A stretch of 64,000 nucleotides of DNA, taken from the NCBI GenBank assembly GCA_003507445.1, contig DNVR01000019.1:142132-206131 (forward strand), given 5' to 3'. Positions 15,797-56,386 of the stretch are shown here, one piece after another; within the stretch, counting starts at the first letter, position 1; every line of letters begins with the position of its first letter. Under the pieces are notes generated by a model. That model was not told the origin of the DNA. It worked only from the letters and a program-made list of their open reading frames with translations, and ran no database searches. The stretch is from Candidatus Moraniibacteriota bacterium (lineage in GTDB: Bacteria > Patescibacteriota > Minisyncoccia > Moranbacterales > GWC2-37-73). Both the position numbers and the translations under genes were made by a program.

Positions 15797-16334
15797 AAAT
15801 GAATTTGTGATTTAAAAACAGATCTAAATTTCTAATATCTAATTTCCAATATCTAATTAAATTCTAATTTCAAAGTTTTAAACATTAGACATTTGAAATT
15901 TATTGGGAATTAGAAATTAGGAATTAGAAATTAAAAAACCTCACTATAAATAGTGGGCTATAAAATACAGATATTAAAATGTTGAAATTTAATCTTGTTC
16001 ATATGTTTATGTTATCTTCATCTCCCAGGGACAAAGCCATTGGGTTTTGCAAGATATTTTAATAAATCTATGTTAGCATATTTTTTGAAAAAAGAAAACA
16101 TAGTAGTTTAGGACTTACGCTTTTTCTCAACAATTTCTTATTTGGCACGCTTTTGGATGAATACTCAATATCCAAAAGCTCAAAGAGTCGCTGTCGCCGA
16201 CTATTGTCCAAAAAAGAAATGTTTCGAAATGCGTAACTTTTGAAACAGTTCAAAACCTGAAAGTGGATAACTTTTCTTGTAAATATGGTATAATTTAACT
16301 ATTAAGATGGATATTTAAATAGTGGGGTTGTTTA

Positions 16335-19026: not shown

Positions 19027-19162
19027 TAAAATTTTTTAAATATCCAATTTCTAATTACCAATTTCTAATTAATTTCAAATTTCTCAATGTCTAAATTTTG
19101 ACATTAGGGTTTAAATTTTTTATTAGGAATTAGAAATTAGAAATTAGAAATTCTGAATTTCT

Positions 19163-23121: not shown

Positions 23122-23255
23122 GTCTCAATAGATTGGTGCATTTTTGTTTTGCCTGCTTCCTTTCTCGGCACGCTTCGCAATCGAAGAACTATGATTGCTC
23201 GCTAAGAGTTCGCTGTCGCTCTCTGTTGCCTCGAAAGAAAACAGGCAAAACAAAA
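23122..23255. repeat. Invertible-element copy A: IR ttttgttttgcctg / caggcaaaacaaaa flanking a ~86-bp core
   Basis: Core sequence is the reverse complement of the core at 53381-53466, while the flanks (including 20 bp left of the IR) are co-oriented. Confidence 0.7.
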
Positions 23256-23405
23256 AACAAACCTTCATTTTCAAAATCATAGTTTGATTATGAGTCACAA
23301 AAGGACGCTTAGAATAGAGCGTCTTTTTACTTGAAAAAAAACCTGAGACCTGTATAATTAGTTTGTAGTTAAGTAGGACTTAATTTAGGCTTAAAATAGA
23401 CAAAT

Positions 23406-25253: not shown

Positions 25254-25580
25254 ATGGAAAAATTTTATAATGCGATTGCGGAATTTCATAAGAAAAATGA
25301 AATGAAGGGCACGAATAATGAGGATATGCAATTTCGTTTAAATTTGATGACGGAGGAATTAGGAGAATTGGCGCAGGCTGTGACGAAAGGAAAATCTAAA
25401 GAGGAGTTTTTGGAAGAGAATGTGGATCTGGTTGTTCTTATTTTGGGTAATTTGATTAGTACTGGAATTACGGTCGAAGAATTTGAGCAGGCGTTTTGGA
25501 AAAAGCATACAAAAATAATGAGCAGGGAAAAAAGAAAATTGGAAAACGGAAATTTTAGAGTGTCAGATTTTAAGGAGTAA
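25254..25580 (+). CDS. MazG-like nucleotide pyrophosphohydrolase (all-alpha NTP-PPase)
   Basis: LMTEELGELAQAV...EELVDLVVLIL EExxE-like MazG motif pattern. Length 108 aa. Confidence 0.5.
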   Translation: MEKFYNAIAEFHKKNEMKGTNNEDMQFRLNLMTEELGELAQAVTKGKSKEEFLEENVDLVVLILGNLISTGITVEEFEQAFWKKHTKIMSREKRKLENGNFRVSDFKE

Positions 25581-25584
25581 AGTG

Positions 25585-25677
25585 TTTGTCATTCTGAACT
25601 TGTTTCATAATCTACTTTCTTTGTATCAGTGAACTTTGAGATAATCGAGATCTTGAAATAAATTCAGGATGACAAAG
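25585..25677. mobile_element. MITE-like element, TIR tttgtcattctgaa / ttcaggatgacaaa
   Basis: 14-bp terminal inverted repeats with one mismatch. Same termini family as 33207, 50108 and 55370. Confidence 0.55.
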
Positions 25678-25742
25678 TTGTGTTTTGAAATTGAGTCATT
25701 GGAAATTGTTTAGAAATTAGTAATTAGAAATTTTTTATACTT

Positions 25743-26944: not shown

Positions 26945-28147
26945 ATGAAGATTGGAATTGATGCTTCCAGGGCTTTTATAAAAAACAGAACTGGTATTGA
27001 AGAATATTCATATCAAGTCATTGAAAACCTGCGTGATAAATTAAATAATCAGCAGGTTGTTTTATATGTTAAAAAAACTAACAACTTACAACTTACAACT
27101 TACGACGGAGTTGTTAAAATTAATGATTTGGAATTGCCAAAAAGTTGGCGAATAAAGGTCGTTAAATTTCCTAGATTTTGGACACAGCTGGGATTGTCTT
27201 GGGAAATGTTGCTGCGTCCCGTTGATGTCCTTTTTGTTCCTGCGCACACTGTGCCGATTATTCATCCTGAAAATACTGTGGTTGTGATTCACGGTTTGGA
27301 ATATGAATTTTGCCCAAAAGCATATTCTTCTTGGGAAAGAATGTATATGCGCGGAACAATTAAAAAATCTTGCGATTGGGCAAGCAGGATTATTTCTGTT
27401 TCTGAAAATACAAAGAAGGATTTGATGAATTTGTATAAAGTTGATGAGAAAAAAATATCTGTAATTTATGAAGGATATAGCCGCGAGGAGCGGAATTTCC
27501 AATTTCCAATTTCCAATTTCCAATCAAATCCAAATGATCAAATTTCAAAAATTAAAACATCAGAAATTCAATCGAAATTCGAAATTCGAAATTCGAAATT
27601 TCTTTTATTCATCGGTCGTATTGAGGAAAGAAAAAATATTTCCAACATTGTTAAGGCTTTTGAGCTTTTGAAAGAGAGATATAATATTCCGCACAAATTG
27701 GTACTAGCAGGAAAAGCAGGTTATGGCTACGATAATATTAAATTCGAAATTCGAAATTCGAAATTCGAAAATGATGTCGTGGAGCTGGGTTTTGTGAGTG
27801 AGGATGAAAAGTGGGAGCTTTTGAAAAAGGCGGATGTTTTTGTTTTCCCAACTCTGTATGAAGGATTTGGAATCCCAATTTTGGAAGCACAGAGTGTTGG
27901 TTGCTCCGTGGTGGCTTCAAATAATTCATCTATTCCCGAGGTAATCGGCGTAGAGACGCAAAATTTTGCGTCTCTACAGTTGGTTGACCCCCAAAATCCT
28001 CAAGACATCGCAGAAAGCATTTATAAGCTTATCTCGAACGAAAGCCTAAAAAATGCTATAATACAGAAAGGCTTGGAGAATGTGAAAAGGTTCAGTTGGG
28101 ACAAATGTGCACAGGAGATAGCTCAAATATTGTTAAAAAAGAATTAA
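26945..28147 (+). CDS. Glycosyltransferase family 4 (GT-B, RfaB-like)
   Basis: C-terminal GT1/GT4 motif (FVFPTLYEGFGIPILEAQSVGCSVVASN). Contains in-frame heptamer-repeat inserts (NFQFPISNFQ, FEIRNSKF x2). Confidence 0.75.
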   Translation: MKIGIDASRAFIKNRTGIEEYSYQVIENLRDKLNNQQVVLYVKKTNNLQLTTYDGVVKINDLELPKSWRIKVVKFPRFWTQLGLSWEMLLRPVDVLFVPAHTVPIIHPENTVVVIHGLEYEFCPKAYSSWERMYMRGTIKKSCDWASRIISVSENTKKDLMNLYKVDEKKISVIYEGYSREERNFQFPISNFQSNPNDQISKIKTSEIQSKFEIRNSKFLLFIGRIEERKNISNIVKAFELLKERYNIPHKLVLAGKAGYGYDNIKFEIRNSKFENDVVELGFVSEDEKWELLKKADVFVFPTLYEGFGIPILEAQSVGCSVVASNNSSIPEVIGVETQNFASLQLVDPQNPQDIAESIYKLISNESLKNAIIQKGLENVKRFSWDKCAQEIAQILLKKN

Positions 28148-29409: not shown

Positions 29410-30354
29410 ATGCAATTCATCGGTAATACAAAATCAGTAAACTTGCTTCAAAAAGCGTTTGAGCACAATGCTCTCGGGCATGCGTATCTTTTTTCTGGGC
29501 CGGAAAAGGTGGGGAAGTTTACTTTGGCAAAAATGTTTGCGCTGAGTGTAATTGCTGGCACTGAATTAAATCTGGATATTGATAATGTTGATAAAAACGC
29601 AATGCTTGATTTGGTGATTGTGGAGCCGGAGATTACTGAAAAAAATGGCATCTCGCGGCAGCGTGACATTTCAATCGAATCAATAAGGGATGCCAAGCTT
29701 AGTCTTAGTCTTTTTCCTTATCACGGAAAATATAAGGTTCTTATTGTTAATGATGCTCATCGTATGACAAATGGTTGTCAAAATGCACTGTTGAAAATTC
29801 TTGAAGAGCCTAATCCGACAACTATTCTTATTTTGATAACCAATGAGGTTGATAGGATTCTGCCTACGATACTTTCACGTTTGCAAGTTGTTAATTTTGG
29901 TTTGGTTGATGATGAGGATATGAACGCTGGTTTTGCAGAAAATTTTTCTTTTCAAAAAGATTGTGTGGAGCTTTCTATTGGCAGACCTGGCTTGGCGCAA
30001 TATTTGAGCGAGCACAACGAGGAAAAACTTTTTAGAACCAACGCTTTGATGGAGCTTGAAAAAATCAGAAAGGGTACATTGAATGAAAAGTTTAAGTTGG
30101 CGGAAGAGCTTTCCAAAGATGCGGTTCGAACTCTTGATAAATTGAATGTTTGGCTTTGGGAAATTAGAAAGATTGCTGTCGACGTAAACCCGCCTCGCGT
30201 CGACGAGCAGTCGTTTCCGCGAGTCGAGGCGGGTCAGGTAGAAAGTAACAGGGCCTGTGCTATCATTGAAAAAATTCAGAAAGCTATGATAGTTTTGAAA
30301 CGGACGAATGCTAACTCGAGACTTATTTTAGAAACTTTGTTTATGGATATGTAG
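29410..30354 (+). CDS. holB: DNA polymerase III delta' subunit (clamp-loader AAA+)
   Basis: NALGHAYLFSGPEKVGKFTLAKMFA P-loop and SRLQ sensor motif. Contains a GC-rich in-frame palindromic insert at 30181-30240. Confidence 0.7.
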   Translation: MQFIGNTKSVNLLQKAFEHNALGHAYLFSGPEKVGKFTLAKMFALSVIAGTELNLDIDNVDKNAMLDLVIVEPEITEKNGISRQRDISIESIRDAKLSLSLFPYHGKYKVLIVNDAHRMTNGCQNALLKILEEPNPTTILILITNEVDRILPTILSRLQVVNFGLVDDEDMNAGFAENFSFQKDCVELSIGRPGLAQYLSEHNEEKLFRTNALMELEKIRKGTLNEKFKLAEELSKDAVRTLDKLNVWLWEIRKIAVDVNPPRVDEQSFPRVEAGQVESNRACAIIEKIQKAMIVLKRTNANSRLILETLFMDM

Positions 30355-30384
30355 TTATTGATTCGTATATAATTAGGATATAAT

Positions 30385-31275
30385 TTGGATATGTCGAGAA
30401 AATATATAAAAAATTGTACGGGAAATGATTGTGAAGAAGAAAAAAAGTCTTCACGATTTTTCTCGGTGTTTATTTTTTATACATTGCTGGTCTGCTTTAT
30501 TGGTGTGACTGGATATGTTGTGTTTTTTTCTCAGCATCTTCAAATTGTAAACATTGCAGTCTCAGGCACAAAAGAACTTAATGGGCAGGAAATTCAGCAG
30601 ATTGTTAGTAATTCGCTGCAAGGAAAATATTTAGGAATAATTCCAAAAAATAATTTTTTGTTTGTTTCACAAAGAAAGTTTGAAAATCTCTTGAATGAAA
30701 AATTTAAAAAAATTCGAACACTGAGTGTGATTAAAAAATTTCCAGACACTGTGAGCATAGAAATCGACGAACGAAAAGCATTGCTGGTTTGGTGTAGCAG
30801 TGAAAAATGTTATTTGCTTGATGAAAATGGCACGGCGTATAGCGAAGCTGATTTTTCATCGCCGGAACTTATGGGCAACAACCTTTTGCAAATAAATGAA
30901 ACCAACAGGAGAGACGTGACGATTGGCGATAAAATAATTGAGCCTGCTTATGAGCAATATGCACTTGCCATCAAAGATTCCTTGGCAGCTCTTGGTTTTG
31001 AGGCAACTGGTCAATATTTCACGCCATCACGAATGGCTGAAGAAATCAATGTGAAAACAACTCAGGAAACAGAATTTTATTTTTCAACTCAATTTTCTTT
31101 GGATTCAGCCATAAGAACATTGGAAACTGTTTTGAAAAAAGAAATTCCTGAGGACAAGAAAGGGGAAATCGCATATATCGATCTTCGCAATGAAAACAAG
31201 GTTTTCTATAAATTCAAAAACACCGACCCGTCCGCAGATGAAAACTCACAAACAGAAAAGGTTGAGGTAAAATAA
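30385..31275 (+). CDS. Cell division protein FtsQ/DivIB-like (TM + POTRA)
   Basis: Single N-terminal TM followed by a POTRA-like region (LQIVNIAVSGTKELNGQEI). Moderate similarity only. Confidence 0.5.
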   Translation: MDMSRKYIKNCTGNDCEEEKKSSRFFSVFIFYTLLVCFIGVTGYVVFFSQHLQIVNIAVSGTKELNGQEIQQIVSNSLQGKYLGIIPKNNFLFVSQRKFENLLNEKFKKIRTLSVIKKFPDTVSIEIDERKALLVWCSSEKCYLLDENGTAYSEADFSSPELMGNNLLQINETNRRDVTIGDKIIEPAYEQYALAIKDSLAALGFEATGQYFTPSRMAEEINVKTTQETEFYFSTQFSLDSAIRTLETVLKKEIPEDKKGEIAYIDLRNENKVFYKFKNTDPSADENSQTEKVEVK

Positions 31276-31324
31276 CTTGTTGCTCTCGAGCGACGGGTTG
31301 AACCAGTCAGTCGTGACTGACGGG

Positions 31325-33172
31325 TTATTCTATTGCAAATGGTACATAATAAATCATAATTGAATTTCCAATCATATCAATTGGCTGGTATTGCTGTGTC
31401 CAAGCGTAATTTGTTGCAGGAGTCTTGTTGACTTTGTCGTATATGCTGGTCTGAAGTGAATTCGTTGAAATGGCATACCAGCCAGCTTCAATTGGGCGTT
31501 TGGAATCCCAACCAGAAACATATTTATCTCCCAGATAATATGCTGGATTTCCTCCACCAAAATAATCCACATTAATCTTTTTTATTTGAGGATTTTCATC
31601 CAAAAATATTTTTAATCTGCCCAAATCCTGCCCCCAGTCAACATTTGAGTCTGTTACATATTTGTATCCGTTTTTGCTGCCACCAATTGATTCATTAAAA
31701 TATGAAACATAGTTGGGATAATTAAAAATTGGTATGATAATAATCCAAGTTATTAAGATGGAAAAAATAATTTGAAGTTGATGTTTTGTGACAAAATGTT
31801 TGTGTCTGAGAAAATCAAAAACTTTTTTAGTTACTAGCAAATATGCTAATGGCATAATCGGAAAGAGGTGTCGAAGGCCAATGTTCAGATTTCCAGTAAT
31901 ACTGAGATATGAATAAAGAGCAATAAAACCAAAGAGGGAATATTGCATCACGCCTGTTTGCAAAAAGCGTTTGAAATTTTTTCCAATACTTTTTTCAGTT
32001 ATTGATCTTTTGAATGTTCTTGTGATTTGTGCTCCAGTATAAATCAGTGAAAAAAGAATCAGCATCAGAAATGGAAGAGTTTCCTTAAGTAGAAATACCA
32101 ATGGAAAATATGCAGGAGATGCCTTGCTGGAAACATTGTTCAAAAAATATGCACCATTTCCTCCAGCGACACGTTTGAACACCATCGTGACACCAAGGAA
32201 ATATTCAGCGTATGGGCGAAGTATTGATGAAGAATTGAAAAAGCTTAAAGCTTTATTAGTGGTCATGCTAAGTGGATTTGGATCGCTAAGCGGAAAGGAA
32301 AAATTTATCTGTCTGGCAATAATTTCTTGCGGCATATTAAACGTGTTTGCGAAATACAAAATCCAGACAATAATCATTGAGATTGCGAAAGCTGCAAGAC
32401 CTTTTATCAAATATGAAAAAAATAATTTTGTGCGCAAAAAATTCTCTTTGATTTCGGTGTCATCGTGAGAGATTTTTTTAATCAGTGGATATCCAAGAAG
32501 AACAAGTCCAAGAATTGGAAAAGCCATTATAGATGAAAATTTTACTGAGCTCACGAGACCCAGAAAAACTCCGCCAATCGCAGCATTTTTCCAAGTTGGA
32601 TTTTTGATGAATTTGAGAAAATAATAAAAAGCAAAAGTTAGAAATGCTGCAATTCCAATGTCAGTTGTAACATAGTGATTGTGTCCCAGGATATTTGGAT
32701 CAAAAGCATATAGGGTCAAAACAAAAAGTCCACCCAAGATCCCAGCAATTTCCTTGCCCCACATAAAAAGAAACAAACCAAGAAGCACTGAGATTAAAAC
32801 AATTGGAAGTCGAGACCAAAAAAGAATTTGATCAGGATTATTGCCAGTTTCATACAAAAGATGTTTTCCGGCAACCCATTGTCCATCATCCCAAATCCTG
32901 TTTAAACCTTCACCCGTCCAAAATTGTTGGGTTGTGTCAAAGTTAAGATTGAGAAATGCCAGTGGAATGCCGATTAAATCTTTGAGTAGCGGTGGATGTT
33001 CAGGATTAAGACGCATATCCTGCTGAGTGATGTAGCTGTATCCTGCAGGAATGTGCGCGACTTCATCAAAAGTGGCTGTGTCATTTTTTGCGTTTAGCAA
33101 AGACACTGTGACAAAAAATGTCATAATAATAAGAACAATCCAGCGGTAATGTTTTTTTAATAATGATTCCAT
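31325..33172 (-). CDS. PMT/ArnT-family membrane glycosyltransferase (GT39/GT83-like)
   Basis: Multiple TM segments and an N-terminal loop DE motif (TFDEVAH) typical of dolichyl/undecaprenyl-phosphate sugar transferases. Confidence 0.75.
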   Translation of the reverse strand: MESLLKKHYRWIVLIIMTFFVTVSLLNAKNDTATFDEVAHIPAGYSYITQQDMRLNPEHPPLLKDLIGIPLAFLNLNFDTTQQFWTGEGLNRIWDDGQWVAGKHLLYETGNNPDQILFWSRLPIVLISVLLGLFLFMWGKEIAGILGGLFVLTLYAFDPNILGHNHYVTTDIGIAAFLTFAFYYFLKFIKNPTWKNAAIGGVFLGLVSSVKFSSIMAFPILGLVLLGYPLIKKISHDDTEIKENFLRTKLFFSYLIKGLAAFAISMIIVWILYFANTFNMPQEIIARQINFSFPLSDPNPLSMTTNKALSFFNSSSILRPYAEYFLGVTMVFKRVAGGNGAYFLNNVSSKASPAYFPLVFLLKETLPFLMLILFSLIYTGAQITRTFKRSITEKSIGKNFKRFLQTGVMQYSLFGFIALYSYLSITGNLNIGLRHLFPIMPLAYLLVTKKVFDFLRHKHFVTKHQLQIIFSILITWIIIIPIFNYPNYVSYFNESIGGSKNGYKYVTDSNVDWGQDLGRLKIFLDENPQIKKINVDYFGGGNPAYYLGDKYVSGWDSKRPIEAGWYAISTNSLQTSIYDKVNKTPATNYAWTQQYQPIDMIGNSIMIYYVPFAIE

Positions 33173-33206
33173 ACTTTTTTATTTTTTTAAATTCAAATTA
33201 ATCTTC

Positions 33207-33328
33207 TTGTCATTCCTGCGTAGGCAGGAATCTAGGATTATGAAATGTGTTTATTAAATTATATTTATCAATAATAGAAATATTGTGTACTAAATCCTGG
33301 ATTCCGGGTCAAGCCCGGAATGACAAAT
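33207..33328. mobile_element. MITE-like element with hairpin-containing TIRs (ttgtcattcc-TGCGTAGGCA-ggaatctagg ... cctggattcc-GGGTCAAGCC-cggaatgacaa)
   Basis: Terminal inverted repeats each contain an internal stem-loop. Same architecture as 55370-55488. Confidence 0.6.
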
Positions 33329-33336
33329 ATGCAGTT

Positions 33337-34899
33337 TTAATTGCTTAGTGTTATGAATATATCCCCAAATTTGTTTTTGTGTTCTTGAAAAGTGAGATTA
33401 GGAATTCTTCCGCGGAGCGAGTTTATTGAATTCCAGTCCCAACCAGTGAAGATTATTTCAATTTTTTCATTGCCTTCAACTTTGATGTTGTTGATTTCGT
33501 GAGGATAAACATAAAAAGTGTTTGGAAGTGTCGGGTTGAGATAATTGATTGTTAGTCTTGGCATAGCGCCTGTAATAATATATTTCTTTTCGCTTTGAGG
33601 AAGAGCTCGAATATAATCAGAGATTGCTCTCGTGTTGGCTTCAAAAACCTGATGCTGTTTTGGGCTATTAGCAAAAAAGACAAAATATTTAATTGGATCA
33701 GCTAGTCCGATAAAAACGAAAACTCCTGTGAGAATGGAGATGGTAAAAATTTTGTAGCTGTGTCCAAATTGATTATATTTTTTTAATATCCAAAGAAAAG
33801 GAAGAATCGAAATCATTATCACTACCGGCAATGTTCCAATGGAGCGCAGTGCGTGAGGATTTCCTTCGTTGGCCAAAAATTCTGGAATAAGCATCGCAAA
33901 AAACCAAGATAAAAGGAAAATATAAACATCCATTTTTTCATCTCGAACACCCTTGTATATTCGCAGCCAAAACAATTGCAAAAATTTAGCAATGATATAT
34001 ATGAATCCGATTAAAAAAGAAATTCCAACGATGGGATTAAGCAGTGGATAAGGTGGATAATTATGTCTCATATTGAGATCGCCCATTACAAAATATTTTT
34101 GCAAACTCAGCCCAAATGTCTTGGCGATTGTTAGTGGAAGATTTCCGCCATTGGTGGCTGAATTGAAAACAGAAATTGCACTTGTGCGTGAAGCATAATG
34201 CTGAGGGTTATAAACGAAAAAATCAAGCAGCATTGGAGTGGCTGTGACTAGCATCGCAAAAGCGAAAACAAGAGTGTGTTTCCAATAGTTTAATAAAAAG
34301 TTTTTGCGAGTGATGATAAGTGAGATGAGCAGCACTACCAAGATCAGTGGGGAAACGCGAAAGGCAATATACGTGTGAACACCAAGTCCATAAATCAAAC
34401 CTGCAATAACAAAATCGTGAAGTTTTTTCGTGCGCAGACCTTTAAAGAGAAAGTAAAAAGAAAAAGAAAGAAGAAATGGAACCATAATAGCCCGAAAGCC
34501 GATGCGCGAAAAGTTGATCGCCCAATATGAAAATGCAGTCAGATATGCGCCAATCAGAGCAGCAGCATAACTTTTGAAAAGTTCTTTGGTAAGGAGAAAA
34601 ACACCCAGAACCGTCAGCGTGCCAAAAATAATCGACCAAAGTTTGAGCGCAAATTCAGTCGGACCAAAAACCTTGATTGAAAGTGCCTGCAGGTTTATAA
34701 ACAATCCTTCGCGACCTTGATTTCCTTCATAAAAAATTTTATATTCCCCAGTCGCATTCGCAAGTTGTGCATCAACGCCATTTTGAGCTTCGTCAGGATA
34801 TATTCCCGCCGGAATGTTTTTGATATTAGTCACTCTCAGCGCAAAAGCCGCAATCAGAATTGCCAGCAGCAGCCCCCAGACGATTTTTTTGTTTTGCAT
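33337..34899 (-). CDS. PMT/ArnT-family membrane glycosyltransferase
   Basis: YPDEAQNG motif in the first loop; 12 or more TM segments. Confidence 0.75.
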   Translation of the reverse strand: MQNKKIVWGLLLAILIAAFALRVTNIKNIPAGIYPDEAQNGVDAQLANATGEYKIFYEGNQGREGLFINLQALSIKVFGPTEFALKLWSIIFGTLTVLGVFLLTKELFKSYAAALIGAYLTAFSYWAINFSRIGFRAIMVPFLLSFSFYFLFKGLRTKKLHDFVIAGLIYGLGVHTYIAFRVSPLILVVLLISLIITRKNFLLNYWKHTLVFAFAMLVTATPMLLDFFVYNPQHYASRTSAISVFNSATNGGNLPLTIAKTFGLSLQKYFVMGDLNMRHNYPPYPLLNPIVGISFLIGFIYIIAKFLQLFWLRIYKGVRDEKMDVYIFLLSWFFAMLIPEFLANEGNPHALRSIGTLPVVIMISILPFLWILKKYNQFGHSYKIFTISILTGVFVFIGLADPIKYFVFFANSPKQHQVFEANTRAISDYIRALPQSEKKYIITGAMPRLTINYLNPTLPNTFYVYPHEINNIKVEGNEKIEIIFTGWDWNSINSLRGRIPNLTFQEHKNKFGDIFITLSN

Positions 34900-35050
34900 T
34901 TTTGTTTCTTGCCCCGTTAAATTCTGCCGTAGGCAGACTATTTAACTGGGGTTGTATTTTTGTGATTGAAATTAGTTTTTGATTCTCAATAGAATTCTCC
35001 CTGTTTCTTTATTAGCTGTATTATACCACCAATTTCAGCTTTCAGCGAGC

Positions 35051-41866: not shown

Positions 41867-42304
41867 ATGAAAAGTAACTTAGAGCCGATTGAGGAAAGTG
41901 ATTTGGACTTGGAGGGTAAAATTAAAAATGGAAGTGTGGATTTTTCTCGTGAGGATGCCGTGCCTGTTTCTGCTATTGAACGTGAAGCGATAAAAGAAGT
42001 TAGTGCAGCTGAAAAGGATGCTGCTTATGGCAAAATTCTTTCCAAAGTTCAAACAGTGCAATCTGATGATGAATTGGATCAAACAGTCATTGCGTCTGAT
42101 GCGAAGACTGGTTACGAAAAAATGGATGCTGAGTCGCAGGTTCAGCACTTGGTTGATATTGCAGGGCAAAAAGGTGTTGTGCATGCTGTGAAAGTGGCTC
42201 AACATATGCAAGACAATTATATTCTCGACACTTTTCACGACCGTATGCTCGGCGAAGAACTGCACAATGCATTGGTGGAGAAGGGAATGATAAAGGAAAT
42301 CTAG
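41867..42304 (+). CDS. Hypothetical acidic protein
   Basis: 145-aa ORF, no domain recognised. Confidence 0.4.
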   Translation: MKSNLEPIEESDLDLEGKIKNGSVDFSREDAVPVSAIEREAIKEVSAAEKDAAYGKILSKVQTVQSDDELDQTVIASDAKTGYEKMDAESQVQHLVDIAGQKGVVHAVKVAQHMQDNYILDTFHDRMLGEELHNALVEKGMIKEI

Positions 42305-42475
42305 GATTTCAAGGTCTAAATACTAAAGACTAAAGACTAAATCAAGATTAAATTTAAAAAAGTTTAAAGTATTGCGTTTGTTTATATTTTAAACTTTAGA
42401 TTTGATTTAGTAATTAGACTTCAGACTTTAGAATTAAAAAATATAAACAAAAAATACAAATAAAAAATATTTTTC

Positions 42476-48594: not shown

Positions 48595-49719
48595 ATGTCA
48601 TCAATTTTTGTCGCGATTATTATAATAGGAATCTTGGCCGCTCTTTTGTGGCTTGTTTTTGATTTAAAAATGAAGGTTGTGGCGAGTAGTGATAACAAAG
48701 AAGAGAGAGAAAAGATGACGGCAATTTTGGAGCGCCTTCGGAATTTGAGCGAACAAAATCATCAAATGCGCACCGAAATAGACACAAAATTAACCGAAGC
48801 GCGGCGTTCTTCGAGTGAGCATATGCGCGACACAATTGAGACAGTCAAGGGGATTACGGGTCAATCAGCCAAGCTTATTAGCAATGTAACTGAAAAGCTG
48901 ACTAAGCTTGATGAAACAAATAGGCAAGTGGTTAATTTTTCGGCGCAACTTCAAAATTTGCAGGATATTTTGAAAAACCCAAAACAACGTGGAGTGCTGG
49001 GGGAATATTTTCTAGAAGAAACACTCAAAAACGTGCTGGGACCAAAGTCATATCAAATGCAATATAAATTGGGCAAGAGTGAAAAAACCGATCAAGATTT
49101 GATCGTTGATGCGGTTGTTTTTGTGAAAGACAAAATTGTTCCAATTGATTCAAAGTTTTCACTTGAGAATTATGAAAGAATCTTGAATTGCACTGATAGT
49201 GCAGAGCGTGAAAAATTTGAAAAATTGTTCAAACAGGATTTGAAAAATCGTATTGATGAAACTGCCAAATATATTCGTCCTGAAATGGGAACAATGGATT
49301 TTGCTTTTATGTTTATTCCTTCCGAAGCAATTTATTATGATTTGCTTGTAAACAAGGTTGGTGCAGCTCAAATTAACACGCGCGACTTGATTGAATATGC
49401 TTTTCAGGAAAAGAAAGTCATCATCGTTTCCCCGACATCATTTCTGGCATATTTGCAAACAGTGCTTCAAGGTCTCCGAGCTTTTCAAATTGAGGAAAAT
49501 GCCAAAGAGATTCGCGCCAATGTGGAAAAACTTGGAAAACATATTATTGCATATGAAGACTATTTGAAAAAATTGGGAAATAATCTCGGAACCACAGTAA
49601 ACAGTTTTAACACTGCATATAAAGAGCTTGGAAAAATAGATAAGGATGTCGCGAAAATAACTGAAGGAGAAAAAACAATTGAGCCTCTGGCTTTAGAAAA
49701 ACCACATGAACTTTTTTAA
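48595..49719 (+). CDS. rmuC: DNA recombination protein RmuC
   Basis: N-terminal TM, coiled coil, then QRGVLGEYFLEETLKNVL matching the RmuC xRGxWGExxLE motif. Confidence 0.7.
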   Translation: MSSIFVAIIIIGILAALLWLVFDLKMKVVASSDNKEEREKMTAILERLRNLSEQNHQMRTEIDTKLTEARRSSSEHMRDTIETVKGITGQSAKLISNVTEKLTKLDETNRQVVNFSAQLQNLQDILKNPKQRGVLGEYFLEETLKNVLGPKSYQMQYKLGKSEKTDQDLIVDAVVFVKDKIVPIDSKFSLENYERILNCTDSAEREKFEKLFKQDLKNRIDETAKYIRPEMGTMDFAFMFIPSEAIYYDLLVNKVGAAQINTRDLIEYAFQEKKVIIVSPTSFLAYLQTVLQGLRAFQIEENAKEIRANVEKLGKHIIAYEDYLKKLGNNLGTTVNSFNTAYKELGKIDKDVAKITEGEKTIEPLALEKPHELF

Positions 49720-50101
49720 GATTGAAAATATAAAATTAAAGCTAAAATACTTTTTTTCACAAGAGTTTTTTCGTAGTGCGCTAATTCAGTGGGTTATGAT
49801 CTGTGCATTTTTTGTTAATCTTGCAAATTGGGGTGCGATTGCATATTTCATCAGACCAGTTGATTTTCCTATCATTCTTCACTATAATGTATATTTCGGG
49901 GTGGATGTGATTGGGGCATGGTGGCAAATGTACTTTTTGCCCCTAATTGGATTGGTTATTCTGAGTGTAAATGCGGTATTGGGGTATTTGTTTTATCAGC
50001 AAAAAGAGCGAATAGTAGCCCATTTGTTGATGTTGGCAACCTTTATAGTTCAAATCTGCATCACTATTGCAGTATCAAGCCTGCTGTTGATAAACTACTA
50101 A
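49706..50101 (+). CDS. Hypothetical small membrane protein
   Basis: 3-4 TM helices; overlaps rmuC stop by 14 nt. Confidence 0.35.
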   Translation: MNFFKIENIKLKLKYFFSQEFFRSALIQWVMICAFFVNLANWGAIAYFIRPVDFPIILHYNVYFGVDVIGAWWQMYFLPLIGLVILSVNAVLGYLFYQQKERIVAHLLMLATFIVQICITIAVSSLLLINY

Positions 50102-50107
50102 TAATTA

Positions 50108-50165
50108 TTTGTCATCCTGAACTTGTTTCAGGATCTAGATTCCGGATCAAGTCCGGAATGACACA
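50108..50165. mobile_element. MITE-like element (compact copy): tttgtcatcctgaa...ggatcaagtcc ggaatgaca
   Basis: Shares the left terminus with 25585 and the hairpin/right terminus with 33207/55370 elements. Confidence 0.5.
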
Positions 50166-50171
50166 GCTATT

Positions 50172-51860
50172 ATGTTTTATTTTCCAAGTCCAAAAACAAC
50201 TGATTTGAAAGAACGAAGAGTTCAGCGCACATTGGAAATGATTCCGGGTATTTTGACATGGGTCACTCTTATTGGGATGTTGGTGGCTTCATTTTTGCTG
50301 CCAATTTGGATTGCAGTTTTTATCATAATGTTTGATATTTATTGGATTTATCGTACTATTTTTATTACTTATTATTCCATCGTTGCTTATAATAAACTTC
50401 AAAATGGTAAAATGATTGACTGGTGGGAAAGATGTCAAAATATCGTTCACCCAAAAGAATATGCTCAAACTATATACGACCGTATGGCGCAATTGAAATT
50501 GAGTCTTAGGAAGAACAAGATGACATTCACTGAAAGAAGAACTTTAAAAAGGGAGATTGCAAGACTGGCGGAATATAAAAGGGAAGTTCAATATATTGCA
50601 ACGGAAAAGATTGACGTGCTTGATTGGCGCAAAATTGTGCATGTTGTTCTTTTGCCGACCGCCAATGAACCTGCGGATGTTATTGAACCAGCTATCCAAG
50701 CTGTTGCTGACAGCAATTTCCCAAATCAACAGATTATTATTCTTCTGGCAACAGAGGAACGTGAAAATGAGCAAAACAGATTGGAGAAAGTAAATTATTT
50801 GCAGGATAAATTCAAAGGAGTTTTCAAGGACTTCTTGGTTACTACTCATGAAGTGCAAGATAATGAAATGAAATGCAAGGCATCAAATGCAACTTATGCC
50901 GCCAAGAAATTGATGGTGTATTTGGATGAAAGGGATATTGATTATAAGCGGGTTATTTTTTCAAATTTTGATTGTGACAGTGTGTGTCATCCTCAATATT
51001 TTGCAGCGCTAACTCATGCATATATTACTGATCCTAAGCGTCTGCAACGCTCATATCAGCCTTTGCCGATGTATCACAATAACATCTGGGATACTAATGC
51101 ATTTGTGCGCGTTATTGTGACAGGTTCTTCTTTTTGGCATATGTTTCAAAGCACAAGGGTGCAGATGGTAACTTTTTCATCACACTCTGAACCTTTTGAC
51201 ACATTGGTAAAGGTTAACTTTTGGCCTTTGGATATGATCAGTGAAGATTCGATTATATATTGGAAATGTTATGCTTATTATCACGGAGATTATATGGTAA
51301 GGCCTATTTATTTGCCGATTTCTCTTGATGCAGTTTTGGCTGAAACATATTGGAAAACTATCAAAAATCAATACAAGCAAAAAAGGCGTTGGGCATATGG
51401 AATTGAAAATTTTCCAGTGATTATGCGAGCTCTTTGGCCTGATAAGACAATTTCTTTGTATAGAAAATTTAGAATAGGATTTGAAATGATCGAAGGACAT
51501 CATTCTTGGGCAACGTCAGCCTTCATTTTGGCGCTCTTGGGTTGGCTACCACTCATCTTTGGTGGACCAGCCTTTAACCAAAGCGTGTTGGCTCACAATC
51601 TGCCTTTCGTGACTCGTTATTTGATGACTCTTGCAATGGGTGGATTGGTTATTTCGATGTTTCTTAGTTTTGTGCTTTTGCCACCGCGTCCTGCAAAATA
51701 TGGTAAAAAACGATATATCTATATGTTTTTGCAATGGTTTTTGGCTCCTATTATTGCACCTACACTCGGAGCTATTCCTGCCATTGATTCGCAGACGCGT
51801 ATTTTGTTCAAGCAATATTTTGGAGAATTTTGGGTAACAGACAAAATACGTAAGAAGTAG
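50172..51860 (+). CDS. Membrane glycosyltransferase family 2-like
   Basis: N- and C-terminal TM bundles flanking a GT-A-like domain (VVLLPTANEP...FSNFDCDSV). Confidence 0.55.
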   Translation: MFYFPSPKTTDLKERRVQRTLEMIPGILTWVTLIGMLVASFLLPIWIAVFIIMFDIYWIYRTIFITYYSIVAYNKLQNGKMIDWWERCQNIVHPKEYAQTIYDRMAQLKLSLRKNKMTFTERRTLKREIARLAEYKREVQYIATEKIDVLDWRKIVHVVLLPTANEPADVIEPAIQAVADSNFPNQQIIILLATEERENEQNRLEKVNYLQDKFKGVFKDFLVTTHEVQDNEMKCKASNATYAAKKLMVYLDERDIDYKRVIFSNFDCDSVCHPQYFAALTHAYITDPKRLQRSYQPLPMYHNNIWDTNAFVRVIVTGSSFWHMFQSTRVQMVTFSSHSEPFDTLVKVNFWPLDMISEDSIIYWKCYAYYHGDYMVRPIYLPISLDAVLAETYWKTIKNQYKQKRRWAYGIENFPVIMRALWPDKTISLYRKFRIGFEMIEGHHSWATSAFILALLGWLPLIFGGPAFNQSVLAHNLPFVTRYLMTLAMGGLVISMFLSFVLLPPRPAKYGKKRYIYMFLQWFLAPIIAPTLGAIPAIDSQTRILFKQYFGEFWVTDKIRKK

Positions 51861-51865
51861 TTAAT

Positions 51866-53320: not shown

Positions 53321-53346
53321 CTGCTAAACACAATTTATGCTTCTAA

Positions 53347-53480
53347 GTCTCAATAGATTGGTGCATTTTTGTTTTGCCTGTTTTCTTTTGAGGCAACAGA
53401 GAGCGACAGCGAACTCTTAGCGAGCAATCATAGTTCTTCGATTGCGAAGCGTGCCGAGAAGGGAAGCAGGCAAAACAAAA
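53347..53480. repeat. Invertible-element copy B (same flanks as 23122-23255, core inverted)
   Basis: Identical 33-bp left flank+IR and 14-bp right IR. Core equals the reverse complement of copy A core with 2 mismatches. Confidence 0.7.
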
Positions 53481-53546
53481 GCTCCTTTTTTTGAGCTATA
53501 ACTTTAGTGTGGTTTTTTTTGGGAAAACAAGAAAAATAGGCAACAT

Positions 53547-53572
53547 AAAACCCCGCTTTTGCGGGGTTTTAT
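53547..53572. terminator. Bidirectional terminator aaaaccccgcttttgcggggtttt
   Basis: Perfect stem ccccgc/gcgggg with A/T runs, between convergent genes. Confidence 0.6.
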
Positions 53573-53637
53573 GTTTTTAACTTCTTTTCCGGAAAAGAAC
53601 AGTTTTGTGAAACAAATATTTTCTTAAATTTTTTCAC

Positions 53638-54246: not shown

Positions 54247-54299
54247 CTTCCTTTCTAGTTTAATCCCGCGTCCAGTGAGGATGCGGGAATTGAATGATT

Positions 54300-55080: not shown

Positions 55081-55094
55081 GGAGGTGTTTTACC

Positions 55095-55265: not shown

Positions 55266-55327
55266 TTTTCTTTTGATACATGTTTTTTATTTTTTGGCTT
55301 CATTGAAAGCCTAAATATATCAACAAA

Positions 55328-55358
55328 CTAAAACCCGCCAATTTGGCGGGTTTTAGTT
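55328..55358 (+). terminator. Rho-independent terminator aaaacccgccaatttggcgggtttt
   Basis: Stem cccgcc/ggcggg + T-run. Confidence 0.6.
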
Positions 55359-55369
55359 TTGAGGAAAAG

Positions 55370-55488
55370 TTGTCATTCCGGACTTGATCCGGAATTCAGG
55401 ATTAGCACGTTAAACTTTAAATAATATTTTTCTCAATTTTAAATCCGTAGTTCAAATCCTGGATTCCCGCCTACGCGGGAATGATAAT
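55370..55488. mobile_element. MITE-like element (ttgtcattcc-GGACTTGATCC-ggaattcagg ... cctggattcc-CGCCTACGCG-ggaatgataa)
   Basis: Same architecture as 33207-33328; internal hairpin stems differ by compensatory changes. Confidence 0.6.
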
Positions 55489-55495
55489 GAATTTT

Positions 55496-56386
55496 TTATT
55501 TAATTTCTATTTTACACACTCTCCATTTACCAGCTAAGTCTTTTTTGAATTCTGGCTTGGTTTTTGGGAAAATGCTTTTGATAAGTTTTGCGAGTGGTTG
55601 TTTTTGCTCGGGACTGATCTCTAAAAAACATGTGACATGTGACAATTGACAATTGGCAAGAAAATCCTGGAGTTGTTCTAATAATTTGCGGTAATGTTGC
55701 AGTCCGGCTTCTGGACTGTAAAGTGCAGATTTTGGTTCGAATTTTTTGACATCAATTGGAGCTGAAGAATAAATTTCTTTTGAGAGATAGGGAAGATTAG
55801 CCACGATTACTATCGTGGAATTTCCAATTTCCAATTTCCAATTTCCAATAAATGGTTCAAGTAAACTTCCGTGGAGGAATTTGATTTTTTTATCAACGCC
55901 ATTCGCGGCAGCATTTTTCTTGGCAATGGTTAATGCTTCCTTGCTGATGTCGATTCCAAAGTATTCAACTTTGTCATTCCCGCGGAGGCGGGAATCCAGG
56001 TTTGCGATGGAGATAATAATATTTCCAGATCCTGTCCCAATGTCAACAATTCCTAAATTGGAAATTGGAAATTGGAAATTGGAAATTTCGTTGAGCACCA
56101 GCTCAACGAGTAGTTCCGTTTCTGGTCTTGGGACGAGAGTGTGTTTATTTACGATAAAATCCAATCCATAAAATTCCTTATGACCAAGGATGTAGGCGAT
56201 AGGCTCTCCTTTGAGGCGACGATTAATTTGAAATTTGAAATTTGAAATTTGAAATTTTGTTAATTTATATTCTGGATATGTTAAAACAAACTCCCTTGTT
56301 TTACCAAGAGAGTTTGCTATTAGGATTTCTAAATCCAAATAGTCTAGTTTATTTGTATATTTTTGGATAATTTCTGAAATTGTCAT
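55496..56386 (-). CDS. prmC: Release factor glutamine N5-methyltransferase PrmC/HemK
   Basis: VDIGTGSGNIIISIA SAM motif I and VANLPY (NPPY-like) motif IV. Adjacent to prfA. Carries several in-frame inserts derived from heptamer repeats and a MITE half-site (LDSRLRGNDK). Confidence 0.8.
   Translation of the reverse strand: MTISEIIQKYTNKLDYLDLEILIANSLGKTREFVLTYPEYKLTKFQISNFKFQINRRLKGEPIAYILGHKEFYGLDFIVNKHTLVPRPETELLVELVLNEISNFQFPISNLGIVDIGTGSGNIIISIANLDSRLRGNDKVEYFGIDISKEALTIAKKNAAANGVDKKIKFLHGSLLEPFIGNWKLEIGNSTIVIVANLPYLSKEIYSSAPIDVKKFEPKSALYSPEAGLQHYRKLLEQLQDFLANCQLSHVTCFLEISPEQKQPLAKLIKSIFPKTKPEFKKDLAGKWRVCKIEIK

Follow-up and report, generated by a model that had tools for sequence, protein, structure and literature searches.

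Hairpin repeats known as NTS or dRS3 are already established as targets of small GIY-YIG single-strand nucleases (Ssn). Of the two strands, SsnA cleaves just the forward one, and it does so on ssDNA, being inactive on dsDNA and RNA; the C past the palindrome is critical for its binding, and its cleavage is sensitive to the three bases 5' of the palindrome (Chenal et al., Nat Commun 2025, PMC11893778). For cognate ssDNA cleavage of the forward strand, the published cases are limited to the enzymes of Neisseria and Wolbachia, and the dRS3/NTS/'Ssn-related motif' (SRM) hairpin is abundant in Rickettsia, Wolbachia and Neisseria, Rickettsia being listed among the genera richest in SRMs (PMC11893778). 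That survey used RefSeq representative genomes, with stress on Pseudomonadati and symbionts, and its main text makes no mention of Patescibacteria (PMC11893778). Another example of a related arrangement is the NIME, in which a 20-bp ATTCCCNNNNNNNNGGGAAT repeat surrounds RS spacers of 50–150 bp, usually in arrays, and which was thought to be Neisseria-specific (PMC1797815).

The window analysed here is a 64-kb stretch from a Candidatus Moranbacteria MAG, an ultra-small groundwater bacterium, with a GC content of 36.7%. It holds nine oriented hairpins that follow the pattern YGTCAT-TCC-[3 bp]-loop-[3 bp]-GGA-AT-C-YAGGAT, eight of which are paired into four inverted doublets of 58–122 bp, while the remaining one stands solo and in frame in prmC. 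Each of the four doublets follows a stop codon at a distance of 4–8 nt. These elements are probably (about 70%) paired copies of an oriented DNA hairpin that belongs with dRS3, NTS or the 'Ssn-related motif', and gene-less relatives of hairpin-ssn-hairpin units.

Hairpin doublets in the window

The elements, which as wholes carry no strand, and their hairpins are located as follows; bits and E values are those of the covariance model described below.

Element A, 25585..25677: decayed doublet of the ATCCTGAA-type variant hairpin, upstream of mreB
Element B, 33207..33328: pair of inverted hairpins around an AT-rich spacer of ~50 nt; the genes on both sides are PMT_2
B left hairpin, 33205..33240, + strand: TGTCATTCC-TGC-GTAG-GCA-GGAATCTAGGATT; 51.2 bits, E 2e-12
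B right hairpin, 33292..33328, - strand: TGTCATTCC-GGG-CTTGA-CCC-GGAATCCAGGATT; 47.9 bits, E 1.8e-11
Element C, 50108..50165: minimal doublet of two adjacent hairpins, filling the 70-nt gap between 49706..50101 and 50172..51860
C left hairpin, 50107..50136, + strand: variant palindrome TGTCAT-CCTGAA-CTTGT-TTCAGG-ATCTAG; perfect 8-bp stem (structural scan)
C right hairpin, 50131..50166, - strand: TGTCATTCC-GGA-CTTGA-TCC-GGAATCTAGATCC; 21 bits, E 0.0014; perfect stem
Element D, 55370..55488: doublet 7 nt 3' of the prmC stop codon
D left hairpin, 55368..55404, + strand: TGTCATTCC-GGA-CTTGA-TCC-GGAAT-T-CAGGATT; 31.9 bits, E 9e-7
D right hairpin, 55454..55489, - strand: TATCATTCC-CGC-GTAG-GCG-GGAATCCAGGATT; 46 bits, E 6.8e-11
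Solo hairpin in prmC, 55969..56004, + strand (gene on -): TGTCATTCC-CGC-GGAG-GCG-GGAATCCAGG; 44.2 bits, E 2.3e-10

By using the terminus string TTTGTCATTCC as a probe of the window with at most one mismatch, eight matches were obtained against 3.2 expected, and 1 of 100 shuffles reached eight; the string by itself is weak evidence for a family. A structural pattern (GTC, an 8-bp stem beginning AT, a loop of 3–6 nt and C) gave 7 matches against 0.12 in shuffles, which is far beyond chance, and a covariance model trained solely on hairpins of other genomes and then run on the window matched six sites at 21–51 bits. The inverted-repeat family proposed in the earlier note is thus real, and the four intergenic elements that it had listed were all found, at its coordinates and with its stems.

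Element B and the reverse complement of D have an identical arrangement, and paired changes separate them in both hairpins (CCTGC/GCAGG versus CCCGC/GCGGG; CCGGG/CCCGG versus CCGGA/TCCGG), as expected from the earlier proposal that each terminus is a hairpin with compensatory stem change. No alignment above chance was obtained between their spacers. The right end of B lies 8 nt from the stop codon (33337–33339) of the minus-strand gene 33337..34899, and D adjoins a separate bidirectional terminator-like hairpin at 55325–55359. Folded as ssDNA, B reaches -20.3 kcal/mol (z -5.2), D -21.3 kcal/mol (z -4.7) and C -13.9 kcal/mol (z -4.6). Element C is separated by 6 nt from a stop codon on one side and by 6 nt from the next start codon on the other.

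A variant palindrome, ATCCTGAA-CTTGT-TTCAGGAT, forms the left arm of C and both arms of A. With the ATTCC-type covariance model, the C left hairpin scored only 10.2 bits (E 2.1, not significant), and A gave no match across 25585–25677. Element A begins 4 nt past the stop of gene 25254..25580, its arms (25588–25612 on the plus and 25649–25673 on the minus strand) were both recovered by the structural scan, each with a single stem mismatch, and it folds chiefly as a single long hairpin (z -2.5); it had been counted as an ordinary copy of the family, and it keeps its place there as a decayed copy of the variant hairpin type. In a WWE3 genome (L026), the variant palindrome seen in C likewise has an ATTCC-type hairpin as its partner.

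Inside prmC, the reading frame across 55970–56000 encodes ...ANLDSRLRGNDKVEY... (LDSRLRGNDK in frame, 30 nt), so that the half-element described there earlier was recovered in the translation. It lies in a hypervariable loop of PrmC, and in the predicted structure the insert corresponds to the end of helix 122–135 and the loop before strand 140–146, where the pLDDT dips to 68. The prmC of a related contig (L140) carries at the same codon position a full in-frame doublet of 72 nt, to whose right half the window hairpin is homologous. The copy in the window is probably the remaining half of a doublet that was once inserted in frame in a tolerant surface loop. A further hairpin, at 54262–54291, had been described as related and as overlapping a Shine-Dalgarno sequence. 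It exists (54264–54289, -11 kcal/mol, z -6.4), but instead of overlapping the GGAAGG Shine-Dalgarno that belongs to the called 198-aa gene, it lies ~13 nt upstream of this sequence; having neither the GTCAT head nor the C past the palindrome, and no match with the covariance model, it was rejected as a family member.

Motif anatomy and relation to described repeats

Each hairpin consists of a 5' head YGTCAT, an 8-bp stem, then C, and then YAGGAT(T). The outer five stem pairs (ATTCC/GGAAT) are nearly fixed, the inner three vary provided that pairing holds, and the loops are of the class G-N-A-R or CTTGA. Two hairpins face each other across 0–60 nt of unconserved spacer, and the forward motif therefore stands at the 5' end of the element on either DNA strand.

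When the pattern GTCATTCC-N10/11-GGAATCYAGGAT was scanned across genomes, at least 119 genome stretches matched, against ~4 expected by chance from simple arithmetic. The hosts among the matches listed comprise Proteobacteria, Nitrospirota, Planctomycetota, Chloroflexota, Acidobacteriota and at least ten CPR lineages, and the host GC of the motif-bearing stretches among them ranges from 26 to 71%; seventeen viral contigs also carry the motif. A likeness to VIPAxAGIQ/SFPRRRES-type repeats had been suggested, and it is correct: GTC ATT CCC GCG AAG GCG GGA ATC CAG reads VIPAKAGIQ, and the motif is the dRS3/NTS/SRM hairpin of the literature (PMC11893778). The family is no speciality of intracellular bacteria, being spread over many phyla.

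In the three free stem pairs, 288 of 297 cells are Watson–Crick, against 193 ± 5 with shuffled partners, which is strong covariation. Cells changed on both sides numbered 78 (18.6 ± 3.0 in partner shuffles of these pairs), and the covariation score was 0.235 against 0.065 in shuffles, none of 500 being as high. G-T pairs are the commonest stem exception. Across 118 hairpins the loop and stem-top positions vary freely and covary, and 56 of the 99 loops of the 10-nt class are GNRA tetraloops. Among the convergent hairpin pairs of other genomes, 48 of 69 span 57–117 bp and resemble the window doublets; a second size class, of 384–435 bp, carries ssn.

The closest described repeat is the NTS/SRM recognised by SsnA (Chenal et al., Nat Commun 2025, PMC11893778). 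Shared features are the oriented hairpin YGTCATTCC...GGAATC-YRG with its conserved C past the palindrome, the mostly extragenic position, the wide phylogenetic spread, and a hairpin-ssn-hairpin architecture in relatives, including a Moranbacteria MAG. The elements of an NTS-like hairpin sensu lato (5' YGTCAT, ATTCC(C)...(G)GGAAT, C then YRG) are present, with two copies deviating at one key base each: in the D left hairpin a T (55396) replaces the conserved C past the palindrome, and the head of the D right hairpin (55485) reads ATCAT, not GTCAT. Both positions are reported as important, and the deviations count against the explanation preferred here. The published operational patterns are narrower, namely NTS with at most one mismatch, or the SRM string HGTCWYN(0-2)YYVSBRHN(0-5)WNVSBRGN(0-2)RNCYNB (PMC11893778). 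Against the 28-nt NTS consensus CGTCATTCCCGCGMAVGCGGGAATCYRG, the three window hairpins scored have 2–4 mismatches: two in the prmC solo hairpin (the best in the window), three in the D right and four in the B left hairpin. No window hairpin thus falls within the one mismatch allowed in Neisseria, and the SRM string has zero matches in the window. It fails because the window hairpins differ in their stem tops and loops (TGC/GCA, GGG/CCC, CTTGA loop), the failures sitting at loop and stem-top positions (G past the stem, T in the stem). The two strings are read here as search heuristics that are too narrow, not as family-defining, and strict membership is weakened accordingly. Further differences are the host, a CPR/Patescibacteria MAG, the second palindrome type (ATCCTGAA) mixed in, the absence of ssn from the 84 kb covered here, and one intragenic copy, whereas in N. 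meningitidis only 2% of NTS copies lie inside genes (PMC11893778).

Other systems share part of this architecture. The exact ATTCCC-N8-GGGAAT form of dRS3 is found at 55463–55482 and 55976–55995 only, and single dRS3-spacer-dRS3 units with unrelated, AT-richer spacers correspond to the NIME subunit (PMC1797815); the window, however, holds isolated doublets and no arrays, and most copies read ATTCC-N10/11-GGAAT, the sixth position being T or G (ATTCCT, ATTCCG). With REPINs (Bertels and Rainey; PMC3116915; bioRxiv 10.1101/2021.07.10.451892), the doublets share two inverted hairpins around a short spacer, a size of ~100 bp, an extragenic position, conserved termini with drifting spacers, and long persistence, whereas the gene that accompanies the hairpins is a GIY-YIG nuclease and not a Y1/HUH transposase. 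Rickettsia palindromic elements (RPEs; reviewed in PMC10969869) are alike in their insertion mode, in frame in housekeeping genes with the peptide in a tolerated surface region, but measure ~150 bp and are defined in Rickettsia, while the coding insertion here is 30 nt, and 72 nt in a relative. The 'peel and paste' elements IS200/IS605 likewise have sub-terminal hairpins recognised as ssDNA, a small unit, and end structure kept over duplex sequence. They differ in enzyme class, the GIY-YIG enzyme having no covalent intermediate, and in cleaving both ends on one strand, whereas the ends here are inverted with the forward motif on opposite strands.

Association with ssn and rival explanations

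GIY-YIG ORFs (PF01541, E 1e-17) lie between inverted hairpins in four of the compared contigs: L129, from another Moranbacteria MAG; L079, from Saccharibacteria; L118, from Gracilibacteria; and L117, which has two hairpin-ssn-hairpin units. A Bdellovibrionales MAG is among the genomes with hairpin-flanked GIY-YIG genes. In the second Moranbacteria MAG, an ssn of ~100 aa is flanked by the hairpins GTCATTCCCGCGTAGGCGGGAATCCAG, whose body is the same as that of the window's 55459 hairpin, and GTCATTCCTGCGTAGGCAGGAATCCAGGAT, one base off the window's 33208 hairpin. Through tblastn, ssn homologues were found in 8 of the 119 8-kb stretches listed. By our own count, the Tyr/Tyr/Glu spacing of the homologues (Y10, Y21, E68) equals that of the residues mutated in SsnA (Y6, Y17, E64). 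Their assignment to cd10448 rests on the Pfam GIY-YIG match, protein size, residue spacing and flanking hairpins; PDB and NCBIfam searches with the Moranbacteria homologue returned no solved relative and no curated family name.

The 64-kb window has no ssn, intact or decayed, by tblastn, and within ~10 kb beyond each end neither a further hairpin (covariance model) nor a GIY-YIG gene (Pfam of called genes) was found; no RAYT or transposase occurs in the window or 10 kb past either end. As the window elements share the termini of the ssn units but lack the gene, these elements of 58–122 bp look, from their sequence, like gene-less, non-autonomous (MITE- or REPIN-like) versions of the hairpin-ssn-hairpin unit. 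None of the 17 viral motif-bearing stretches has ssn, so that evidence of a phage vector is lacking.

In a ~75%-identical allele of the gene pair around B (L127), B is absent and the intergenic space is 19 nt against 161 nt, though an allele this divergent defines neither an empty site nor a target duplication; D is absent at the same position in L140. Within the same population, no presence/absence polymorphism was found: the contigs with prmC and D (L001–L006) all carry the elements, A is present in nine of nine strain contigs examined, and B is carried by all same-population contigs examined. Near-identical strains therefore give no sign of recent movement.

Could the doublets instead be REPINs that owe their copying to a REP-associated tyrosine (HUH/Y1) transposase reading ssDNA hairpins? 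A REPIN-RAYT system was proposed by Bertels and Rainey for the same sequence in Neisseria, where ATTCCCGCGCAGGCGGGAATC is treated as the REP of the RAYT NMAA_0235 (bioRxiv 10.1101/2021.07.10.451892). The architecture is exactly alike (two inverted hairpins, a short unconserved spacer, ~60–120 bp, extragenic), the window doublets are two inverted REP-like hairpins able to fold as one long hairpin, and an HUH enzyme cuts and rejoins DNA, which a GIY-YIG nuclease does not. However, searches with E. coli RayT (tblastn and phmmer, E up to 1), a single distant query of limited sensitivity, found no homologue in the window or in the motif-bearing stretches, which add up to ~1 Mb and come from over 100 genomes, whereas ssn occurs in eight of the same stretches listed, directly flanked by hairpins; the Pfam matches of called genes in the window and flanks include no Y1_Tnp family. 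This origin is considered unlikely. No greater weight is given to an RNA-level element (terminator, mRNA stabiliser, processing site or small RNA), in which selection on an RNA fold would explain the covariation. For three of the four elements, the neighbouring genes run in the same direction with tiny intergenic spaces, so that transcription of these elements is probable; the GNRA tetraloops and G-T pairs would suit an RNA, and there is sub-threshold Rfam similarity to FtrB of Francisella (20 bits) and WsnRNA46 of Wolbachia (19 bits). These scores are far under the gathering scores of 65–66 bits, and in the window nothing reached a gathering score except three tRNAs. A terminator scan of 49500–56500 recovered no element hairpin, and none has a T-run directly 3'; the classical terminators, at 53542–53575 and, beside D, at 55325–55359, are separate from the elements. 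The elements also face either way with respect to transcription and form inverted pairs, the motif, asymmetric in itself (5' YGTCAT, 3' C), is conserved across phyla with the gene of a DNA-binding nuclease, and SsnA does not bind RNA (PMC11893778). Of the selected RNA or DNA structure that had been argued from the stems, the covariation stands; the RNA half does not agree with the published biochemistry, in which the hairpin is read as ssDNA (PMC11893778).

The term MITE-like, used in the earlier note, fits insofar as an inverted-repeat element family is present, and the ~35-bp terminal inverted repeats, small size, several copies and intergenic position would all suit classical MITEs, deletion derivatives of a DDE-transposase IS whose repeats are bound as dsDNA. 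In that usual sense it is very improbable: target-site duplications, read directly, surround none of the four copies, and compensatory change within a repeat arm is unexpected if the arm is read as duplex DNA. The sole long class among the 69 convergent pairs (384–435 bp) encloses only the ~100-aa GIY-YIG gene and no transposase, and ORF clustering over all stretches listed yielded no transposase family. It is just as improbable that the repeats are at bottom recombination targets, as published for Neisseria, where dRS3 is the integration site of filamentous phages via an IS110-like transposase (PMC1797815; PMC11893778). The motif does occur on the 17 viral contigs, but none of these carries ssn, no recombinase or phage gene adjoins any window copy, and such a role explains the use of sites, neither their origin nor the doublet form. 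Such use could go together with the main explanation, to which it is no true alternative.

Proposed mechanism and the hairpin-ssn-hairpin unit

For the Ssn-recognised doublets preferred here, the mechanism is drawn by analogy with the enzymes of Neisseria, N. elongata, N. wadsworthii and Wolbachia. During ssDNA phases (replication, repair, DNA uptake) each hairpin would fold, and a cognate Ssn would bind the stem and the C past it and nick the element at its outer edge, a few nt 5' of the head. The elements may have been helped by Ssn in trans as they spread, may be kept because their hairpins are still recognised, and may influence how single-stranded DNA, incoming DNA for instance, is handled. 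To our knowledge, copying or movement of these repeats by Ssn has never been demonstrated, and an enzyme that makes one nick per strand, at the 5' edge of the element, neither excises nor pastes DNA unaided.

These findings place Ssn-associated hairpin repeats in the Candidate Phyla Radiation, whose members are ultra-small, DNA-scavenging episymbionts with genomes of ~1 Mb and few recognised mobile elements. The repeats make up nearly all of some intergenic spaces and, like the RPEs of Rickettsia, add peptides to essential proteins. The cross-phylum set also represents a natural mutagenesis map of what the nuclease tolerates, in which five pairs are fixed, three covary and the loops fall into two classes, and this map helps in choosing new ssDNA-cutting specificities.

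A bolder and rather doubtful extension is that the hairpin-ssn-hairpin unit is itself an autonomous mobile element of an unrecognised class, in which the ~100-aa GIY-YIG enzyme would nick its own 5' edges and host replication or repair would complete the copying, the doublets in CPR genomes being its non-autonomous offspring. If true, such offspring would have colonised even minimal CPR genomes, settling directly behind stop codons and, as in PrmC, within loops of essential proteins without breaking the frame. The unit is discrete, measures ~385–435 bp and can be multi-copy, and it thus offers a concrete test case for a transposon-like life cycle driven by a GIY-YIG nuclease. One ssn, in Yonathbacteria (L100), has three in-frame stops. 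The two units of L117 are alike from ~4 nt before GTCAT to ~5 nt past ATGAC and no further, with hairpins that are 100% identical and ssn genes that are ~85% identical.

Paired hairpins and their fold

The earlier note had described four palindromic elements, with each terminus of the two longer copies folded as a hairpin, and all four were recovered at their positions with both termini forming individual hairpins. The window has a G+C content of 36.7% over 64 kb, and contig DOKX01000004.1 of GCA_003510165.1 contains an identical stretch; this assembly is a groundwater MAG, and its proteins are labelled Candidatus Moranbacteria by NCBI. The features are:

25585-25677, palindromic element A
33207-33328, palindromic element B
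50108-50165, palindromic element C
55370-55488, palindromic element D
55969-56004, solo hairpin within prmC

The end of the clearest copies reads TTGTCATTCC-(3 nt)-loop-(3 nt)-GGAATC-YAGGATT, in which ATTCC plus 3 nt pairs with 3 nt plus GGAAT. By itself, the terminus 11-mer is weakly enriched in the window (8 matches vs 3.2 expected). A structural scan for GTC, an 8-bp stem beginning AT, a loop of 3-6 nt and C returned 7 sites vs 0.12 in shuffled sequence. When all window positions were scored with a covariance model trained exclusively on hairpins of other genomes, six sites matched (21-51 bits, E 2e-12 to 1.4e-3), and this model found no further hairpins in 20 kb added at the window's two ends. 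Folded as ssDNA, the three best-preserved doublets gave z values of -4.6 to -5.2 vs shuffles. The left arm of element C and both arms of element A use a different palindrome, ATCCTGAA-CTTGT-TTCAGGAT; element A has one mismatch per stem and is a decayed copy. Judged from coordinates, a stop codon lies 4-8 nt from one end of every intergenic element (4/4), and element C takes up nearly all of a 70-nt intergenic space. The compensatory stem differences previously claimed are evident when B is set against the reverse complement of D, since the arrangement is the same and paired changes occur in both hairpins; the similarity of their spacers does not exceed that of shuffled sequence.

A further hairpin, put forward at 54262-54291 as related and overlapping a Shine-Dalgarno sequence, is real and stable (54264-54289), but it lacks the GTCAT head, the trailing C and a model match, so that it was not counted as a member. 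Its position is 5' of the Shine-Dalgarno sequence and does not include it. At 42284-42312, at the 3' end of ORF 41867-42304, GGGAATGATAAAGGAAATCTAGGATT resembles a right terminus fused to the tail that follows the hairpin in a left terminus, and may be a scar left by deletion of a doublet.

One genome per bacterial species (596 Gb) was scanned with the pattern GTCATTCC-N10/11-GGAATCYAGGAT, which leaves stem top and loop free, and at least 119 stretches were obtained vs about 4 by chance, by our own arithmetic. Among the matches listed, host G+C ranges from 26% to 71%. Hosts outside the CPR include alpha-, beta-, gamma- and deltaproteobacteria, Neisseria, Nitrospirota, Planctomycetota, Acidobacteriota, Dehalococcoidia, Elusimicrobia and Omnitrophota, and CPR hosts include Paceibacterota, Moranbacteria, Falkowbacteria, WWE3, Gracilibacteria, Saccharibacteria, Peribacteria, Doudnabacteria, Yonathbacteria and Magasanikbacteria. 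Across the 118 distinct hairpins in these listed matches, the three unconstrained stem positions were Watson-Crick in 288/297 cells vs 193 +/- 5 with 3' partners shuffled, and pair counting gave 78 both-side changes vs 18.6 +/- 3.0, a value that no shuffle reached. The selected secondary structure inferred in the earlier note is therefore borne out on independent hairpins from other genomes. Loops of these 118 hairpins are G-N-A-R (GAAA, GAAG, GCAG, others) or CTTGA, and T or C stands directly 5' of GTCAT in 113/118. Convergent hairpin pairs elsewhere span 57-117 bp in 48/69 cases, the size range of the window elements, and a separate class of 384-435 bp carries ssn.

Insertion sites and the hairpin within prmC

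No presence/absence difference was seen, the elements being carried by all near-identical strains examined. In L127, a contig of another assembly, a ~75%-identical allele of the PMT_2 gene pair has 19 nt vs the window's 161 nt including element B. Positions 1-5780 of L127 keep the gene order of window 29746-34901 at ~70-76% identity, and from 35017 on the two are 100% identical, a sharp recombination mosaic of co-occurring strains. Element D is missing after prmC in the related contig L140. There, at 1536-1720, another long palindrome, AGTTCGTATACTTTTTATTTTTGCAC...GTGCAAAAATAAAAAGTATACGAACT, lies 3' of prmC at the position of D. Relatives thus have different palindromic elements in one and the same intergenic slot.

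Within prmC (55496-56386, minus strand), the half-element was confirmed to be in frame, as 55969-56004 reads CTG GAT TCC CGC CTC CGC GGG AAT GAC AAA on the coding strand, encoding LDSRLRGNDK. This peptide falls in a hypervariable segment of the PrmC alignment, between the GxGxG strand-helix and the following strand. Comparison with orthologues, proposed earlier, revealed variable insertions at this site: two orthologues, ~66% identical, share the peptide, an 80%-identical one has an unrelated repeat-derived peptide, and the homologue P0004 has a 24-codon insertion that in DNA is a complete doublet, GTCATTCCGGACTTGATCCGGAATCCAG...CTGGATTCCAGCCTCCACGGGGATGAC. The right half of this doublet is homologous to the solo hairpin, and the window copy is thus best explained as an in-frame doublet of which one half survives. 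In the AlphaFold model (mean pLDDT 82.6), residues 131-140 close helix 122-135 and continue into the loop that leads to strand 140-146, where pLDDT falls to 68 vs about 90 either side, which fits a tolerated surface insertion.

The published motif, its nuclease and the possible copying of the elements

The window hairpins are identical in kind to the NTS/dRS3 motif. In Neisseria, dRS3 (ATTCCCN8GGGAAT) borders 50-150-bp spacers in 'neisserial intergenic mosaic elements' (PMC1797815), and a REPIN built on the same hairpin was ascribed to RAYT (bioRxiv 10.1101/2021.07.10.451892). The 28-nt 'Neisseria transformation sequence' is CGTCATTCCCGCGMAVGCGGGAATCYRG, within a wider class of 'Ssn-related motifs'; the motif is typically found on both sides of ssn genes, and motif-rich genomes include Rickettsia, Wolbachia and Neisseria (PMC11893778). 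The window hairpins show 2-4 mismatches to this consensus and do not satisfy the narrow search strings of that study. The elements belong to an already described kind of repeat and not to a new system; what is new here is the host lineage, the stem and loop variants and the coding insertion.

Clustering of all ORFs from the motif-bearing stretches listed yielded a sole small recurrent family, a ~95-100-aa GIY-YIG protein (PF01541, E about 1e-17), and no transposase family. By tblastn it was found in 8/119 of these stretches, and intact ssn homologues are located between inverted hairpins:

L079, Saccharibacteria: hairpin 5682-5717, gene to 6057, inverted hairpin 6074-6105
L117, Bdellovibrionales: two hairpin-ssn-hairpin units, 2.5 kb apart
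L118, Gracilibacteria: four tandem hairpins, gene, inverted hairpin
L100, Yonathbacteria: 812-1081, ssn pseudogene with three in-frame stops

The two L117 units have identical hairpins and genes ~85% identical, and are alike from ~4 nt 5' of GTCAT to ~5 nt past ATGAC with no likeness beyond, a pattern that suggests a discrete, copied unit with constrained ends. In L129, another Moranbacteria MAG, the GIY-YIG homologue P0205 has two flanking hairpins. The first, TGTCATTCCCGCGTAGGCGGGAATCCAG, shares its hairpin body with the window hairpin at 55459; the second is the inverse of GTCATTCCTGCGTAGGCAGGAATCCAGGAT and differs by a single base from that at 33208. Database searches returned thousands of ssn homologues; Patescibacteria contribute many of them, and many of the contigs that carry them are very short. 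No ssn was detected in the 64-kb window by tblastn, nor any GIY-YIG, Y1 or DDE transposase Pfam match in the called genes of the flanks and most of the window. In L100 the upstream hairpin is still perfect, and ssn appears to be decaying beside a preserved motif. The four L118 hairpins (4997-5167, 45-nt period), directly upstream of ssn, are array-like and reminiscent of Neisseria NIME arrays.

SsnA, a 94-aa single-domain GIY-YIG protein, binds and cuts the motif as single-stranded DNA only and on the forward strand only, being inactive on duplex DNA and on RNA; binding depends critically on the C that follows the palindrome, and cutting is influenced by bases 5' of the palindrome (PMC11893778). 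The hairpin and doublet anatomy, the covariation and the hairpin-ssn-hairpin units in relatives are demonstrated here. From the published biochemistry of homologues, the hairpin would be recognised as single-stranded DNA and nicked a few nucleotides 5' of its head. As the hairpins are inverted, the forward motif stands at the element's 5' end on each strand, so that nicks are predicted at the two outer edges, one per strand; these sites coincide with the limits of similarity between the L117 copies. Gene-less doublets may be copied with Ssn acting in trans, and may be kept because they would still be recognised. To our knowledge, GIY-YIG nucleases have no strand-transfer chemistry, and replication or repair would therefore have to finish any copying. 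For DNA-scavenging CPR bacteria, one may plausibly speculate that the hairpins affect single-stranded DNA entering the cell, as in Neisseria transformation. Of more interest is the possibility that hairpin-ssn-hairpin units are themselves genuine mobile elements, belonging to a new class.

A REPIN-RAYT system agrees with the shape of the doublets, but it is an improbable source, as the hairpin-associated gene is GIY-YIG and not RAYT, and no homologue of E. coli RayT was found in the window or in any motif-bearing stretch listed. We are equally doubtful of a role at the RNA level: although three elements probably share transcripts with adjacent genes and GNRA occurs in 56/99 loops of the 10-nt class, T-runs are missing at the hairpins, the elements occur in either orientation and the partner protein shows no binding to RNA. 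The finding of the earlier note is real and its interpretation largely correct. A DDE-type MITE is unlikely, as target duplications were not seen and no parent IS was found. Use of the hairpins as recombinase targets is compatible with recognition by Ssn and not an alternative to it.

At 33187-33347, sub-threshold Rfam similarity was noted to Francisella sRNA B (RF02748, 20 bits) and Wolbachia sRNA 46 (RF02625, 19 bits), and the string CGCGGGAATGAC is also present in a Francisella sRNA paper. Some described small RNAs may be merely transcribed copies of the hairpin repeat.

Other repeats of the window

A second, unrelated family consists of intergenic palindromes of tandem 7-nt units, (AATTTCY)n ... 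(RGAAATT)n:

10709-10820, second-family palindrome
15826-15938, second-family palindrome
19036-19152, second-family palindrome
25683-25732, second-family palindrome
27491-27600, second-family palindrome
56368-56442, second-family palindrome
59181-59298, second-family palindrome
42315-42432, palindrome with another tandem unit

Those of the second family often stop ~10 nt 5' of a start codon (mreB 25743, 19163, 59308), and may have a role in promoters or 5' UTRs, or represent another mobile repeat. A 115-nt sequence occurs twice, inverted, at 98% identity and 30 kb apart (23142-23256 and 53366-53480), is edged by its own inverted repeat, TTTTTGTTTTGCCTG...CAGGCAAAACAAAAA, and may be a further small mobile element or else a non-coding RNA that was duplicated. 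At 55086-55253, a 12-nt tandem repeat of at least 9 units encodes a Lys/Ala-rich (AKKAVKK)n protein, convergent with prmC. In prmC itself, heptamer repeats of the second family lie in frame four times (56227-56264, 56058-56095, 55816-55855 and ~55630-55660), giving FQISNFKFQI, ISNFQFPISN, IGNWKLEIGNS and CQLSHVTC, with reduced pLDDT in the model. The corresponding loops of orthologues hold other repeat-derived peptides (YKIQDTRY, ENCKLKIENS, CSMFHVSC), and PrmC loops in Moranbacteria look like hot spots of in-frame repeat insertion.
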